Of a stretch of DNA of 64,000 nucleotides, positions 48,780 through 55,204 are shown one piece after another. Numbering within the stretch: the first letter of the stretch is position 1; each line of letters begins with the position of its first letter. The notes below the pieces were generated by a model that had not been told where the DNA came from, ran no database searches, and saw only the letters and a list, made by a program, of their open reading frames with translations. The stretch comes from Candidatus Hydrogenedentota bacterium (GTDB taxonomy: Bacteria; Hydrogenedentota; Hydrogenedentia; Hydrogenedentales; SLHB01): assembly GCA_963745075.1 (NCBI GenBank), contig CAVUWV010000009.1, positions 64,001-128,000 of the forward strand, written 5' to 3'. Position numbers and translations under genes: made by a program.

Positions 48780-48809
48780 TTGACAGAAAGCGAGTGTCCG
48801 TGTTAGTGT
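48780..48809 (+). promoter_or_regulatory. putative promoter of the M4 peptidase/peptide locus
   Basis: TTGACA (48780-48785), 18 nt, TG-extended TAGTGT (48804-48809). Confidence 0.45.
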
Positions 48810-48888: not shown

Positions 48889-50652
48889 ATGAGAAAAGTG
48901 CTATTGGGGGGGTATTCCGGCAACAGTTTCTTTGGGCGGGGGCTTGCGGCGCTGATACTTACGTCAGTGGTAACCATGCTATCTGCTGCGGCGGAAGGCG
49001 TCGAAGCGGATCAGACGGTCGTTGCGTCTACGCTCATCGAGAGTATAGGGGAATTGGCGCCTGATGAGACTCCGCGAATCGCGGTGGACAGTCGGGGCGT
49101 CGTGACCCATTTCGCCGCGCCACGGGGGCACTCGATGAGCGTGGAGGGCGCGTCGCCGGATGACGGCAAGGACCAACGGGCCTTGAAATTCGTGGAAACG
49201 CACGCGCAAGCGCTCGGGCTCGCCAGCGACCGTGTTGGACTGAACGTCCACGCCATCACCACGACCCCGGAACGCTCGTATGTGCGAATCAAACAGCAGT
49301 ACGACGGAATCCCGATCCACGGCGCGGAAATCGTCCTGCAACTCCAGCCGGACGGCACGGTGAAGTCATTTCTGGCGGATATCATGACCGAGACCGCCGC
49401 TCTGGACGCGGACCCGGGGGCCACGGAACCGGGGTTGAACGCGGCCGAAGCCGCCGAGTCCGTCCTGGAAATCGCCAGTGAACGCCTCCAGAAGGCGCAG
49501 GAGAAATACCGGTCCGATGTGACATTGGCGGTCGAATCGGGAGAAATCGACGCGGAAACGGCGCAAGAACACCTCGATCAAGCAAGCGCAGCAGTCGCGG
49601 AGCTTACAGACAACGGCGGACTTCAGATTTACGCGCCGCACGTTATCGGCGATTCCGGCACGAACGCGCTGGTTTGGGTTTTCAAGGTAGATGACACGGC
49701 GGGAATCACGAAACCGGTGCAAATATTTATCGACGCAGATACTGGAGAGTTGGTTCACGTGAATCCACTCGTTGCGGACGCCATAGACAGAAGACTCTAC
49801 GACAATCACCTCAATGGATTGGATGGAATCCCGAATGCGACGCTGCGCCGCACAGAAACGAGTGGTCCGGTGACAATATTCGACACAATCTTTTTTGCCG
49901 ATTTCAATGCCCACTGGGACATTCTTGGATATGTGTACGACTATTTCGATGAGAACCACGGATGGGACGGCTGGGATGGGGTTGGCGGGTCGATATACTC
50001 GTACATACGGTTTGATCTCGTATCCAACGCCGTATGCGATACAGATAACGGTTACATGTGGTTCGGGACAAACGGGATCGCGGTCTCGGACGACGTGGTG
50101 GGACACGAGTTCACACACGCCGTGGTGCACGGCGTGTGTGAACTGCAATACTGGAGACAATCAGGAGCAATCTCAGAATCCTTGGCTGACATGTGGGGCG
50201 AGTTCATTGACTGGTCGTGCCCCGTTTTGGGAAATGATTTGGCGTCAGTGAAGTGGCAAATCGCTGAAACTATCGGAAGTGGACCACTTAGGGACATGCA
50301 GGATCCACACCAACGTCTTCAACCGGACATATATCAGGGCACGTACTGGGTTTACGGGAACGGCCAAATGACAGAAGAGGAAAATGACGTCTTTGTCCAT
50401 ACGAACAGCGGAGTCGGCAACAAACTCGCATATTTGCTCACCGACGGCGACACGTTCAATGGCAGTTTTGTCAGTGGCATGGGGGTAGCGGTAGTTCGCG
50501 ACCTGTATTGGGAAACCGTACAGCTGATGGGAACAAGCTGCAATTACCACGATCTCCATGACCTATTATTGGATGCAGCGGACAATCTAGACCTGACCAC
50601 CGGCCAGGTTGATAACATCCAAGCCGCCTGCGAAGCCGTTGAAATTGACTGA
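48889..50652 (+). CDS. secreted thermolysin-family (M4) zinc metallopeptidase preproprotein
   Basis: Signal peptide, FTP (YVRIKQQYDGIPIHG), PepSY (IFIDADTGE), DVVGHEFTH, QSGAISESLAD, LRDMQDP, VHTNSGVGN. Confidence 0.95.
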   Translation: MRKVLLGGYSGNSFFGRGLAALILTSVVTMLSAAAEGVEADQTVVASTLIESIGELAPDETPRIAVDSRGVVTHFAAPRGHSMSVEGASPDDGKDQRALKFVETHAQALGLASDRVGLNVHAITTTPERSYVRIKQQYDGIPIHGAEIVLQLQPDGTVKSFLADIMTETAALDADPGATEPGLNAAEAAESVLEIASERLQKAQEKYRSDVTLAVESGEIDAETAQEHLDQASAAVAELTDNGGLQIYAPHVIGDSGTNALVWVFKVDDTAGITKPVQIFIDADTGELVHVNPLVADAIDRRLYDNHLNGLDGIPNATLRRTETSGPVTIFDTIFFADFNAHWDILGYVYDYFDENHGWDGWDGVGGSIYSYIRFDLVSNAVCDTDNGYMWFGTNGIAVSDDVVGHEFTHAVVHGVCELQYWRQSGAISESLADMWGEFIDWSCPVLGNDLASVKWQIAETIGSGPLRDMQDPHQRLQPDIYQGTYWVYGNGQMTEEENDVFVHTNSGVGNKLAYLLTDGDTFNGSFVSGMGVAVVRDLYWETVQLMGTSCNYHDLHDLLLDAADNLDLTTGQVDNIQAACEAVEID

Positions 50653-50706: not shown

Positions 50707-50886
50707 ATGTCAAGAATAAGACTCGTGAGCCGGGTTCCCTTCGTCGATCCGTTGCTCCCGGCACCAGCTATTCAAGCGGAAACCCCGAAGGAGCGATACA
50801 AGACCTGTGAAGACGAGCAAACGTCCCTGATAGGCAAGGCCGCCTGCTACCGCACGCTGGTACAGGAGAAACTTACGGGCAAGTAG
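50707..50886 (+). CDS. small peptide P1 (59 aa) MSRIRLVSRVPFVDPLLPAPAIQAETPKERYKTCEDEQTSLIGKAACYRTLVQEKLTGK
   Basis: AAGGAG RBS, translated by hand; paralogous to P2-P5; below the ORF-track cutoff. Confidence 0.88.
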   Translation: MSRIRLVSRVPFVDPLLPAPAIQAETPKERYKTCEDEQTSLIGKAACYRTLVQEKLTGK

Positions 50887-50994
50887 TCCAAACTCACGTT
50901 GAGAATTCTTGGAAAACAGGGGTCGAGTGGCAGTTCTCGTAGAGCGCTGTTCGCTACTTTCTTCAGTACCATGATGAAAGGCAAAGTATTCGCA

Positions 50995-51174
50995 ATGGAT
51001 AGAATTCGAAGCATGAGTCGTGTGCCATTCGTCGAGAATCGCAGGCCCGCCGTGGCGGTCTGGCAAGGGAACGCGGTCACCCACTTGAAGGAGTGTCTCT
51101 CGCACCAGACCACGGTCCGTGGCAAGAAGGAATGCTACGAGACGTACCAGGCGGAGAAAGCTGAGAAGCAGTAA
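50995..51174 (+). CDS. small peptide P2 (59 aa) MDRIRSMSRVPFVENRRPAVAVWQGNAVTHLKECLSHQTTVRGKKECYETYQAEKAEKQ
   Basis: Same leader and C-x12-C spacing as P1; C-terminal part of track ORF 50899-51174. Confidence 0.85.
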   Translation: MDRIRSMSRVPFVENRRPAVAVWQGNAVTHLKECLSHQTTVRGKKECYETYQAEKAEKQ

Positions 51175-51200
51175 CAGGGATTCGTGGTGAGGTATGAGTC

Positions 51201-51380
51201 ATGCATAGAATCAAGTCTGTCAGCCGCATTCCCGTCGCCACACAGCCGCGATACGCGGCGCTTCCCCCTTCTGCATGGGAGCACTACAAGGCTTGTGTAA
51301 ACGAGCAATCGACGTTGGCTGGCAAGAAGGAGTGTTTCCGCAATTATATCGGGGAGCGTTCCGAGGATAAAAACCCATAG
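51201..51380 (+). CDS. small peptide P3 (59 aa) MHRIKSVSRIPVATQPRYAALPPSAWEHYKACVNEQSTLAGKKECFRNYIGERSEDKNP
   Basis: GAGG RBS, translated by hand; paralog of P1; absent from the ORF track. Confidence 0.87.
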   Translation: MHRIKSVSRIPVATQPRYAALPPSAWEHYKACVNEQSTLAGKKECFRNYIGERSEDKNP

Positions 51381-51395
51381 TCTGGAGAGGGTGCG

Positions 51396-51701
51396 ATGTA
51401 CTGGGTGTTCGCGTTTGGCGCAGGTATCGGCGCCAACGGAAACCAGCTCCGCGCTTGGACGCACGCTAATGGTTGCGTGGGCAATAGACTTGCCTATCTA
51501 CTCACGGACGGCGAAACGGTTAACGGGATGGGCGAGTTACCCGTGCGGGAACTTTATTGGGAAACCCTCCAATTGATGCCGGTCGATCCCGATTACAATG
51601 ACTTGTATCAATTGCTTTTAGACGCAGCAGACAATCTCGGTATGTCGCCAGCAGAAGTGAGCAATATCCAGAATGGTTGTGAGGCCGTCGAGATCGACTG
51701 A
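51396..51701 (+). CDS. orphan C-terminal fragment paralogous to the upstream M4 peptidase (101 aa)
   Basis: YWV...THANGCVGNRLAYLLTDG...LYWETLQLM...LLLDAADNL...CEAVEID aligns with the last ~100 aa of 48889-50652; no HExxH; GGAG RBS upstream. Confidence 0.85.
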   Translation: MYWVFAFGAGIGANGNQLRAWTHANGCVGNRLAYLLTDGETVNGMGELPVRELYWETLQLMPVDPDYNDLYQLLLDAADNLGMSPAEVSNIQNGCEAVEID

Positions 51702-51752
51702 GTGCGGAAGTCATTCAACCCAACTTACCTTAACAGAAAAAGGAGTGCTCGA

Positions 51753-51932
51753 ATGCGCAGAATCAAGTCTGTCAGCCGCGCCCCGTTTGCCGGTCCGATT
51801 CCTGCGGCGGCAATCCGGGAGATGGAACCGTGGGAGTACTGGTTGGCCTGTCTGATCAGTCCCCTATCCTGGATAATCGGCATAAAGGGATGCTACTGCT
51901 CCTATAGCCATGATTGGACACAAGAAACTTAG
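51753..51932 (+). CDS. small peptide P4 (59 aa) MRRIKSVSRAPFAGPIPAAAIREMEPWEYWLACLISPLSWIIGIKGCYCSYSHDWTQET
   Basis: AAGGAG RBS; same leader; hydrophobic C-x13-C-x-C core. Confidence 0.87.
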   Translation: MRRIKSVSRAPFAGPIPAAAIREMEPWEYWLACLISPLSWIIGIKGCYCSYSHDWTQET

Positions 51933-52017
51933 GAGGGCTTCGGATACCGGTGCGTCAGCCGCTCGATCGTACACCGGGCGACGGATGGGTGCGGGCGAAA
52001 CGAATGAGATCTCACTG

Positions 52018-52203
52018 ATGGGTAGAATCAAGCGTGTGAGCAGCGTTCCGTTTGTCCATGGTTCGATTCCGGCGCCTGCGGTTTTGCCGGAAACTGATTC
52101 GGAACGCTACAAGGCGTGTCTTGACAAGCAGACCACGCTCGGGGGCAAGGTGGGCTGTTTTGTCGACTATATGATCGCGCTTTCCGACAAGAGCCAACTG
52201 TAG
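52018..52203 (+). CDS. small peptide P5 (61 aa) MGRIKRVSSVPFVHGSIPAPAVLPETDSERYKACLDKQTTLGGKVGCFVDYMIALSDKSQL
   Basis: Same leader and C-x12-C core as P1. Confidence 0.85.
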   Translation: MGRIKRVSSVPFVHGSIPAPAVLPETDSERYKACLDKQTTLGGKVGCFVDYMIALSDKSQL

Positions 52204-52282: not shown

Positions 52283-53353
52283 CTACTTGAATGAATCCAT
52301 GATCTTCTCGAAAGTCTTCGCCGAGGGTCGAATCCTGGATTCGGGCAGCGTCGCCAGCGGCTCGTCGACCAGATTGAGGTGGTCATCCAAGGCGTCCCGG
52401 TCGCGGCTGTAGTAGACCAAGCCCGTGTAGAACAGATTGTGCTCTTTGGCCTCATCGAGCAGTTTCATCGCCCGATGGCGGTTATGGGAATCGTGGTCCA
52501 GTCCCAGCTTCTTAAGCGTGATGCGAGACCCGTCGTGCAAGGTTACCACCGTGGTCGCGCCCTCGTCGTACTCCACGTGAATGTCCTCGTAATGGGGAAT
52601 GAAGTCCATCTCGTGGAGGGGTTCTTCGTGGCTTCGGGCATACGCAACGCTCTTGGTGGAACCCTCATGATTGTTAAACGTCACACACGGCGAAACGATA
52701 TCAAGCACCGCCGTGCCCCGGTGGGCGATGGCCGCCTTAATCAGCGTGCGCACCTGCTGCGTGTCGCCGGAGAAAGACCGCGCCACAAATCCGCAGCCCA
52801 TCTGGATCGCCAGCGAGCACAGGTCCACCGGCGAAGACTCGATGGTCGTGCCGCTCTTCATGCGCGTGCCGCGATCCGCCGTGGCCGACGCCTGGCCCTT
52901 GGTCAATCCATAGCATCCGTTGTTCTCGATGATATACACGATGTGCGCGTTGCGCCGCACCATGTGAGCAAAATGGCCGAGCCCGATGGAGGCCGTGTCG
53001 CCGTCGCCGCTGACGCCGATGTTGACCAGCTTCCGGTTTGCGAGGCTCGATCCCGTCGCAATCGTGGCCATGCGGCCGTGCAACGAGTTGAACCCATGGG
53101 ACTCGTTCAGAAAGTAGTTCGTCGTCTTGCTGGAACACCCGATGCCGCTCAGTTTTGCGACCTGGTGCGGATCGATCCCGAGTTCGAAGAACGCCTTAAT
53201 TATGGAACTCGTAATGGCGTCGTGACCGCAACCCGCGCACAGCGTCGACTCCGCGCCGCGGTAATCCTGCATCGTCAGGCCGATACGGTTCGTCTTCGCA
53301 TTCTTCGCCGCGGGCTTTGCCTTCTTTGCGGCATCCGCTACCGAGGTACTCAT
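52283..53353 (-). CDS. korB: 2-oxoacid:ferredoxin oxidoreductase subunit beta
   Basis: LCAGCGH, SGIGCSSK, LHGR, SGDGD, ENNGCYGLTKGQ, SPCVTFN motifs. Confidence 0.93.
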   Translation of the reverse strand: MSTSVADAAKKAKPAAKNAKTNRIGLTMQDYRGAESTLCAGCGHDAITSSIIKAFFELGIDPHQVAKLSGIGCSSKTTNYFLNESHGFNSLHGRMATIATGSSLANRKLVNIGVSGDGDTASIGLGHFAHMVRRNAHIVYIIENNGCYGLTKGQASATADRGTRMKSGTTIESSPVDLCSLAIQMGCGFVARSFSGDTQQVRTLIKAAIAHRGTAVLDIVSPCVTFNNHEGSTKSVAYARSHEEPLHEMDFIPHYEDIHVEYDEGATTVVTLHDGSRITLKKLGLDHDSHNRHRAMKLLDEAKEHNLFYTGLVYYSRDRDALDDHLNLVDEPLATLPESRIRPSAKTFEKIMDSFK

Positions 53354-55204
53354 TCCGTTCCTTTCTGCTCCGCAATGCGCTGGAGCACCAATTCCACTAC
53401 CGTCTCCGCGTCGAGGGGCATTCCGCTATAGTGCAACGCCGTCTTTAAGCGTGTGCCGAATTCGGGATATTCGCTGCGCAGGATGGAGGCCACTTGACCG
53501 TCCCGATTCTGTTCTACGACGCATACGAGCCGGTGTTGTTCGCAGAACGCGCGGACCTTCCCATTCACGGGGAGCGCCCGCAACCGAAGGTATGCGGTTT
53601 TGACCCCGTGCTTCGTCTCGAGAATCTCGCGGGCCTCCTGTACGGCGGGGTCGCTTGACCCATACGCAATGATTCCGGCCGCTGCGTCCTTCGGTTCGTC
53701 GATAACCGGCTGCGGCACGATCTCCCGCGCCGTATCGAACTTGCGCTGCAAGCGTTCGATATTCTTAAGCCAATCCTCCGGCTTCTCAGAGTAGACCGCT
53801 TTATCCGTGTGACCCGTTCCGCGCGTGAAGTACGCGGCATTCGGGTGCGCCGTTCCCGGCAGGGTCCGGTACGGAATGCCGTCGCCGTCCACGTCGCGAT
53901 ACCGCGCAAATTCACCGTTCCGGTTGAGGTCTTCCGCTCTCAGCACCTTCCCCCGCGCGATCGGTTTGGTGGGCGGTGTAATCGAGTCCGACATCCACTT
54001 GTTCATGCCGAGGTCTAGGTCGGACATGACAAACACCAAGGTTTGAAGCTGCTCGGCCAACTCCAGGGCCTCGCTCGTGAAATCGAAGCACTCCTGCATA
54101 TTCCCGGGCAGAAGCAATACGTGTTTGCAGTCGCCGTGCGATAAGGTGTATGCCTTCCCAACGTCGCCCTGGGACGTCCGGGTCGGAAGCCCCGTGCTCG
54201 GACCCATCCGCTGCACGTCAACGATGACGGCAGGCACCTCGGCAAAATAAGCCAGGCCCGCCATTTCGGACATGAGGGAGATTCCCGGACCGGACGTGGC
54301 GGTAAACGCCCGGGCGCCCGCCCAGCCTGCGCCGATAACCATCCCCATGGACGCCAACTCGTCCTCCGCCTGGATGACCGCGTAGGTGGCCTGATTGCGT
54401 CTCCGGGTCGCGCCGGTACTTGTCGAGGTACTTGATAAGATGTTCGCAGAGGCTGCTACTGGGCGTGATCGGGTACCACGCCAGGAAGGTGACGCCGCCG
54501 AATAGCATGCCCAATGCCGAGGCCTCGTTGCCTTCGATTATGATCTTGTCTGTGGTCAGTTCGCGCCGCTCCAGCCGGTGCAGCGTCTGCTTGGGCAGAT
54601 GTTCTTCCGCCCAGGCGAAAGCGGCGGACGCCGCCGTCTTGTTTAGTTCCGCGGCCTTCGCTTTCCGGGCGAACTGCCAGTCGATCGCATTCCCGATTTC
54701 CTCGAAGGGGATGCCCAGCAGCGACGCAAGGACACCCACGTACATGACGTTAACTACCATCTTCCGGAGGCGCGTGTCCGCACAGGCTTCCTTCACCAGC
54801 GTATTGAAGGGTACATAGAAGACCTGGAGATCCTCGCGCGTGACCAGCCGCTTCAGCGTTTCGTCGATGATCAGCATGGACCCCGGTTCCAATTCAGCGA
54901 TATCGTCCGCCGCGGTCTGCGGGTTCATCGCCACTATCAGGTCGGTCTTTTCCCGATGCGCCAGCCATCCACGTTCGTTTACCCGCACGGTAAACCATGT
55001 CGGCAGGCCTTGAATGTTCGACGGGAAAAGATTCTTCGCGCCCACCGGAATGCCCAGTGTGAAGATGGAGCGCATGAGAATCAGGTTGGCCGACTGGCTT
55101 CCCGAACCGTTTGGCGTGGCAATCTTGATTACCACATCATTGATGGTAGGGGTCGACGCCGAGCGGGATAGACTAGCGTCCGCGTCGGCAACTGCGTGGC
55201 TCAT
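53350..55204 (-). CDS. korA: 2-oxoacid:acceptor oxidoreductase subunit alpha (one-base insertion near 54398)
   Basis: NGSGSQSAN, WYPITPSS, QAEDELAS, TATSGPGISLM, QRMGPSTGLPT motifs over two frames. Confidence 0.93.

Follow-up and report, generated by a model that had tools for sequence, protein, structure and literature searches.

The 64,000-nucleotide stretch of Candidatus Hydrogenedentota bacterium DNA analyzed here (the window; contig CAVUWV010000009.1 of assembly GCA_963745075.1, positions 64,001 to 128,000) carries a gene for a thermolysin-family (M4) metalloprotease, followed on the same strand by genes for five small leader-bearing peptides, P1 to P5. A first-pass annotation of the sequence had proposed that the M4 enzyme is the dedicated peptidase of these leaders and that the leader motif may mark the peptides for recognition or export by machinery encoded at other loci. 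The analysis indicates that P1 to P5 are likely remote substrates of an operon that occurs across the phylum, and that M4 likely acts only once the peptides have been exported and is probably not their leader peptidase, a reading to which we assign a probability of about 0.55.

P1 (50707..50886, +), P2 (50995..51174, +), P3 (51201..51380, +) and P4 (51753..51932, +) are precursors of 59 amino acids (aa), and P5 (52018..52203, +) has 61 aa. The P1 gene is preceded by the ribosome-binding site (RBS) AGGAG, and alignments and a structural model divide its product into a leader (residues 1 to 21), which ends in a Pro-x-x-Ala (PxxA) motif followed by Ile at nucleotide 50770, and a two-Cys helical-hairpin core. 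In the alignments, PxxA is followed by Val at 51058 in P2 and by Ile at 51813 in P4, whose core is rich in Trp and Tyr, and P3 reads PRYA|A-L-P-P; in P5, the orthologue alignment places Val at 52081. The five are real genes because they have a common start register, an RBS in most cases, cores under purifying selection, and a family of 38 aligned members. They are tandem paralogues with 36 to 46% identity to P1, and M1, R3, I4, S8, P11, P18, A21, C34, G43, and C47 are common to all of them. The start codon lies 33 codons upstream of the first Cys in most family members. Cores are conserved better than leaders, with nonsynonymous divergence (dN) of 0.03 to 0.33 versus synonymous divergence (dS) of 0.37 to saturated in 13 chosen pairs; dN was 0.07 to 0.19 versus dS of 1.1 to saturated for the P2 core in three pairs, and core dN was 0.045 to 0.11 for P5. 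The P1 model (mean pLDDT, 75) predicts no secondary structure in residues 1 to 26 and helices at residues 27 to 37 and 41 to 57, so that core conservation and the model together support the leader-core boundary.

Of the 40 family members, 38 were aligned, and these come from four genomes of one genus; the G004 fragment and a G002 copy whose start is unclear were omitted. In addition to the window, the same genome (G000) carries a second M4 and three family peptides on contig C18, and arrays occur in the relatives G002 (9 peptides), G003 (12), G005 (10), and G004 (1, cut by the contig end), while none was found in G001, of the same genus and 81% complete. The copy of P1 on contig C18 (L001:9756-9911; G000:C18:193755-193913) is 87% identical, and an early TAG stop leaves it with 52 aa instead of 59. 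A full-length family model gave no strong match beyond the genus in 135 genomes, and Pfam, NCBIfam, and PDB sequence searches with the window precursors gave nothing above cut-off. Protein database searches returned 18 and 22 matches, of which all but three were family-like short peptides, and every named organism among them belongs to the Hydrogenedentota; the repeat-rich proteins P0035 to P0037 among the matches were rejected as spurious. Scans of metagenome contigs with P2 and with the P5 alignment yielded no confirmed locus. Among sequencing runs, no RNA run was listed as holding the sequences, and four DNA runs with small shares yielded only short pieces.

The operon that probably serves these peptides lies on another contig of the same genome (G000:C20:133684-140571, minus strand) and encodes two leader peptides, three GNATs, a CPBP protease, an ABC ATPase, an ABC-2 permease, and a 640-aa homologue of CteB. 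The sole PDB match of the 640-aa protein is CteB, the SCIFF maturase (PDB 5WGG; E = 1.5e-20), to which it is related from the RRE through the SPASM region; its RRE-like region, recognized by sequence only, aligns at residues 5 to 173 with CteB residues 6 to 174 (E = 1.8e-6). In CteB, the RRE binds the CteA leader, which takes the form of a beta-strand (PMC6231123). Unlike the SCIFF/ranthipeptide maturases (TIGR03974, NF040492), the RRE protein has no CxxxCxxC motif in any of 70 homologues and has lost most auxiliary-cluster cysteines, although four SPASM cysteines are retained without exception; its C terminus carries a fused GNAT-like region (PF13420 on many homologues), and its score is 77.6 versus a SCIFF maturase cut-off of 425. 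The precursors differ likewise, since the five window peptides and 16 others do not match the SCIFF model, since the window family has two conserved cysteines rather than six, and since many unlinked precursors with unrelated cores occur here. A predicted complex of RRE residues 1 to 98 with P1 residues 1 to 32 scored 0.02 against a mark of 0.32 and was counted neither for nor against binding. Within the RRE region, residues 23 to 28 of the protein (L081:5688-7607, minus strand) read CxCxxC, a run that varies little or not at all among the 70 homologues and is absent from CteB; it is possibly a metal site.

The operon protease is an Rce1-like CPBP (type II CAAX) protein (PF02517, above cut-off), a class with the motifs EExxxR, FxxxH, and HxxxN/D; EExxxR, FxxxH, and HxxR (E125, E126, R130, F162, H166, and H204) are invariant in 21 of 21 sequences. 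The operon contains four GNAT domains, which match Acetyltransf_3/4. No C39 domain was seen on its ABC ATPase, no genome-wide search for C39 having been made, and no heterocycle-forming enzyme was seen among its genes. Leader peptides are encoded upstream of the operon in 19 of the 20 genomes read, and the 54 operon peptides collected have near-invariant M1, H3, A12, and K34, the last a Lys after the helix.

The leader of P1 to P5 is not specific to M4 and belongs to a leader family found throughout the Hydrogenedentota. This MKH-leader family, defined here by an M-[KR]-[HR]-[IVL]-x-x-[IVL]-[ST] start followed by (P)xxA, which P1 to P5 fit, is apparently undescribed. A matrix trained on only the 54 operon peptides, all from other genomes, recovered P1 to P4 among 35 matches in the genome of the window; P5, whose upstream DNA does not contain the required RBS words, was not among the 35. 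At M4-free loci of the same genome, at least 21 more short open reading frames, picked by eye, carry the leader. With a model of the leader alone, the tag turned up on unrelated cores in G110, G027, G105, G013, and G061, and no M4 was present in the stretches read around those peptides. A genome search for the exact start motif, as suggested by the first-pass annotation, found only the two M4 loci of this genome and proved too strict, broader leader models finding more. Two looser screens were set aside as mostly spurious, one a loose matrix with 1515 matches and the other the weak leader-only matches, 4 of 25 of which were real on inspection. Three tandem long-leader peptides of G110 (contig C228; L074:3760-4497, minus strand) lie without an M4 between TrkA-like and outer-membrane-like genes.

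Operon and peptides occur together across the 135 genomes. The RRE protein was found in 123 of them (83 of the 86 of high quality), the CPBP protease in 119 (83 of 86), and operon-type peptides in 123 (82 of 86), and none of the three was found in nine genomes of family f3 (G072, G073, G074, G076, G078 to G081, and G037) that are 72 to 97% complete. These nine offer natural loss lineages for comparison, and four of them carry an M4. An M4 match, mostly to long forms of 850 to 1400 aa, was obtained in 93 of the 135 genomes, and G011, G009, G035, G014, and G027 (93 to 100% complete) have the peptides and no M4 match. M4s do not track the leader peptides across genomes, and the expectation that an M4 would be present wherever the leader family occurs failed in both genomes and loci. 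With four of the five peptides recovered by the operon matrix, and with peptides, RRE protein, and CPBP co-occurring, the sequence comparisons give good support to the proposal that the leader motif acts as a recognition or export signal for distant machinery.

The following route is proposed. The precursor would be made in the cytoplasm, where its leader would be bound by the RRE of a catalytically dead radical S-adenosylmethionine (SAM)/GNAT scaffold, as homology to CteB suggests. A lysine may be acylated by a GNAT, by analogy with selidamides (PMC8784127) and in line with the near-invariant Lys of the operon peptides. Gene context and the analogy with SagE, a CaaX-like protease "believed" to remove a RiPP (ribosomally synthesized and posttranslationally modified peptide) leader before ABC export (PMC4513790, PMC4603692), point to the CPBP membrane protease as the enzyme that would cut after PxxA. 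The core would be exported by the ABC transporter, and a Cys34-Cys47 disulfide would close the helical hairpin seen in the model. In the least certain step, the secreted M4 would act on exported peptides outside the inner membrane, turnover or further trimming being its favored role. A wider reading, held tentatively and falling a little short of even odds, is that small-peptide secretion and maturation is a core function throughout the phylum, with M4s having repeatedly captured peptide arrays as a second, extracellular tier; that the radical-SAM enzyme has lost its chemistry and become a docking scaffold that bears the RRE and is joined to an acyltransferase; and that one CPBP protease and one ABC exporter serve dozens of unrelated, scattered peptides.

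The M4 gene (48889..50652, +) encodes a prepro-metalloprotease of 587 aa, as indicated by Pfam, the thermolysin match (E = 5e-19), and selection (dN of 0.10 to 0.26 versus dS of 0.66 to saturated in four copies). Peptidase_M4, M4_C, and FTP (E = 5.5e-8) score above cut-off, and the PepSY match is weak. A predicted Sec signal peptide, with a hydrophobic stretch at residues 18 to 28 followed by SAAA|E, precedes an FTP/PepSY propeptide and the catalytic domain, at which the protein ends without a C-terminal extension, whereas most M4s of the phylum have 850 to 1400 aa. In common with the thermolysin family, it has the prepro architecture, the HExxH zinc-binding motif (HEFTH, residues 406 to 410, 50104..50118, +, aligned with thermolysin HELTH), the third-ligand Glu, and the catalytic His; GAISE and VHTNSG align as well, and equivalents of the Tyr and Arg and the S1' residues are retained. 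In thermolysin residue numbering, Asp226 is replaced by Asn, and NAFW is replaced by NAVC. These residues are compatible with proteolysis before hydrophobic residues, and the enzyme is predicted to work outside the cytoplasm because it has a predicted Sec signal and intact catalytic residues.

The leaders of P1 to P5 have no such signal. Consistent with the first-pass annotation, they have no hydrophobic h-region (best 11-residue Kyte-Doolittle mean, 0.17 to 1.31, versus 2.36 at the M4 N terminus) and no double-Gly motif, GG being absent from residues 1 to 25 of all five. The motif RI[KR]xVSRxP is exact in three of the five; P2 has M for V, and P5 has S for R. Four of the junctions read as matching thermolysin hold, namely PAPA21|I22 in P1, PAVA21|V22 in P2, PAAA20|I21 in P4, and PAPA21|V22 in P5. 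In P3, the aligned PxxA is P16-R-Y-A19|A20, and RYAA20|L21 requires a one-residue shift, after which Pro22 directly follows L21 and occupies substrate position P2' (substrate positions are always so named here). Pro at P2' blocks thermolysin.

The match of the junctions to thermolysin specificity appears to be weak evidence because the five are paralogues, each with 7 to 12 thermolysin-legal sites, and because the position varies among P5 orthologues. The hydrophobic bias is real and comes from one expanding family. Across the 38 members, PxxA is followed by F (11), V (9), I (6), A (3), S (3), Y (2), or, once each, L, M, E, or H, so that I/L/V/F account for 27 of 38 (71%), versus 18.9% of all family residues, although positions 4 (89%), 7 (92%), and 41 (82%) are more hydrophobic than the junction. 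Among six P5 orthologues, the core hardly varies from Thr26 onward, whereas PxxA is followed by V, Y, F, A, E, and A. The unlinked peptides of the genome of the window have I/L/V/F after the conserved Ala in 6 of 21 cases and the operon peptides in 0 of 54, the latter having D (18), Q (11), A (9), or E (7) most often.

Linkage of M4s to leader peptides is found beyond the genus. Of 20 other M4 loci read, several of the rest being too near a contig edge to judge, three have leader peptides with unrelated cores directly downstream, five in G071 (L118:3169-5076), five in G043 (L122:4106-5140), and one in G030 (L114:2104-2259). A restriction of the linkage to one genus was rejected on the basis of these rows. 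Peptide-linked M4s fall in two places of a 20-row tree, which samples 20 M4s, has long branches, and omits the G005 M4 (frame slip); a single clade, and hence a single origin, was rejected (approximately unbiased test, P = 9.9e-5). The comparisons therefore indicate a linkage that is real and recurrent and arose at least twice. The residues after Ala in these rows are G, S, A, S, and A in G071, F, F, D, S, and W in G043, and Q in G030; because only 2 of the 11 are I/L/V/F, a thermolysin-type P1' residue does not appear to be the rule of the linkage. The cores in G071 are rich in Cys, and several end in Lys-Cys.

In G002, the array persists with nine peptide matches although its M4 has suffered an internal deletion, in which the M4 promoter and first ~15 codons are fused to the last ~83 codons (G002:C243; L023:6842-7150, minus strand). 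No other short M4 was found in this genome (93% complete), and the array contains a second M4 3' remnant (L023:5479-5817). An M4 dedicated to leader removal is at odds with this array, with the same leader occurring away from any M4 and before nonhydrophobic P1' residues, with the few hydrophobic residues behind unrelated M4s, and with a Sec-type signal peptide on the protease and none on the precursors; that the window M4 is the leader peptidase of P1 to P5 is accordingly regarded as doubtful.

Several observations weigh against the remote-operon reading. Compared with the operon type, the window leaders have about seven more residues and carry Arg3 rather than His3, and they may have diverged in handling. 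The co-occurrence has exceptions, G042 having the CPBP only and G102 (88% complete) having no RRE match, and the nine co-absences, being among kin, may reflect one or few losses. The M4 loss in G002 may be recent, its remnant still having a low dN, in which case the independence of the array from the enzyme is unproven. The difference between 27 of 38 and 0 of 54 is the shift that an M4 leader peptidase predicts, and the latter count depends on register, because 13 of the 54 operon peptides (xA-D/E-A-F/L, without Pro at position P4) would gain F/L if the cut fell two residues further on; with Pro at P4, as in 33 of the 54, the shifted register brings no such gain.

The last of these points underlies the best-surviving alternative, in which the tag routes intact precursors through the RRE protein and ABC exporter and the cotranscribed, secreted M4 removes the unstructured leader up to residue 21/22. 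Cutting might then stop at the last hydrophobic site before the disulfide-held hairpin, by analogy with GelE, which cleaves EntV at Leu and Ile to give the active form (PMC6606811); in P1, P4, and P5, indeed, no further legal site lies between residue 21/22 and the first helix, and for these three the alternative predicts the same N terminus as the remote-operon reading. The window M4 preserves catalytic and S1' residues, thermolysin favors L, I, V, and F in the P1' position and accepts Ala at P1 (PMC12643060), and the recurrence of M4-plus-peptide rows on separate branches also fits. Leader removal by M4 is nonetheless unlikely, given the 2 of 11 count behind other M4s, the Glu, Tyr, and Ala tolerated in P5 orthologues, the Pro at P2' in P3, the array kept without enzyme in G002, and the conservation of PxxA, with Ala at position P1 in 34 of 38 members, which an enzyme driven by P1' would not need. 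The peptides might instead have ceased to be clients of the operon, with an inherited leader, and be disulfide-bonded partners of M4 (inhibitors, regulators, or coregulated cargo) or hitchhikers of a mobile cassette. Cassette neighborhoods do differ between G000 (twice), G003/G005, and G002, the M4 3' remnants inside arrays point to repeated duplication of M4-end-plus-peptide units, and parts of the leader motif are lost in some members. This is improbable in view of the basic strand, PxxA, and spacing kept in most of the 38 members, short-leader variants included, of precursors that have no Sec signal and no other evident route to a secreted protease, and of a Foldseek search in which the P1 model matched no PDB structure, inhibitors included, at E ≤ 0.001. 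Cleavage by signal peptidase I, following some unusual form of export, is very improbable: the A-x-A-like junction, with Ala often at P3 as well as at P1 and with Pro upstream, resembles a c-region, whereas there is no h-region, position -3 is often not small in the wider family, and a dedicated protease sits in the operon that tracks the peptides.

The proposed pathway shares features with several known systems. The leader, a short basic stretch in which hydrophobic residues alternate with others, may resemble the start of the SCIFF leader. Streptolysin S-type clusters likewise have a CPBP protease (SagE) beside an ABC exporter (SagGHI) and leader-bearing precursors; they differ in their heterocycle enzymes, none of which was seen in the operon, and in cores with Cys/Ser/Thr runs rather than helices, and the Hydrogenedentota operon is near-universal in a phylum. 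Selidamides, RiPPs that are fatty acylated by GNATs (PMC8784127), likewise pair GNATs with precursors in which a conserved core Lys is the candidate acceptor, and the window family has lysines in G-K-K-x-C and at the C terminus; the leaders here have 11 to 21 aa and are not of the proteusin or Nif11 type, four GNAT domains of Acetyltransf_3/4 type are present, and acylation is putative. EntV and GelE of Enterococcus faecalis also combine an M4 with a small two-Cys helical peptide, the active form of which arises by cleavage before hydrophobic residues, whereas EntV is processed during secretion to a 136-aa propeptide (PMC6606811) and the precursors here have ~60 aa, no signal peptide, and a family-wide leader. 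Assignment to the double-glycine-leader bacteriocins does not hold, with no GG in the five leaders and no C39 on the operon ABC ATPase. By sequence, the pathway is RiPP-like (leader, RRE, protease, and exporter), yet outside both the SCIFF/ranthipeptides and the double-Gly bacteriocins. The peptide-maturation pathway is apparently undescribed, as no description of such a system was found in literature titles and abstract openings, a coverage that excludes most subscription papers.

If the remote-operon reading is right, a short tag defines a phylum-wide pathway in which one kit serves many substrates and which domain-based mining has missed, the RRE protein being annotated at present only as "SPASM domain-containing" or hypothetical. 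It would also offer an example, open to testing, of how a dead radical-SAM protein can be turned into a scaffold that reads leaders. CPBP proteases, which one paper describes as suspected leader peptidases, would gain a set of natural substrates, and a promiscuous tool for tag-based cleavage, acylation, and export would become available. Were M4 instead dedicated to leader removal, which is the less likely reading, the EntV/GelE precedent would be extended only modestly.

The row in the window runs on one strand in the order M4, P1, P2, P3, M4 remnant, P4, and P5. The remnant (51396..51701, +) comprises the last ~100 codons (101 codons) of a second M4, without HExxH (M4_C, E = 8.7e-6), and is 57% identical to the window M4 and 72% identical to the C18 M4. 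The row is headed by a probable sigma-70-type promoter (48780..48809, +), TTGACA with TG-n-TAGTGT, which is suggested by the alignment of TTGACA and the -10-like block across the window, the paralogous C18 locus, and the G002 locus; a consensus promoter/terminator scan gave nothing above shuffled sequences and did not call it. On the opposite strand, the row is flanked by trxB-like and 2-oxoacid:ferredoxin oxidoreductase-like genes, named from sequence. The alpha-like gene of the latter (53350-55204, minus strand) is split over two overlapping frames near 54400, owing to either a frameshift or an assembly error. Elsewhere in the genome, a 51-aa peptide (G000:C10:373502-373654, plus strand) has a basic start and two repeated TTLAxGEE units and looks like a graspetide-type precursor. 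A 31-aa peptide (G000:C23:5502-5594, minus strand), the gene of which has a strong RBS, carries CxC close to its end and is possibly a separate RiPP precursor.

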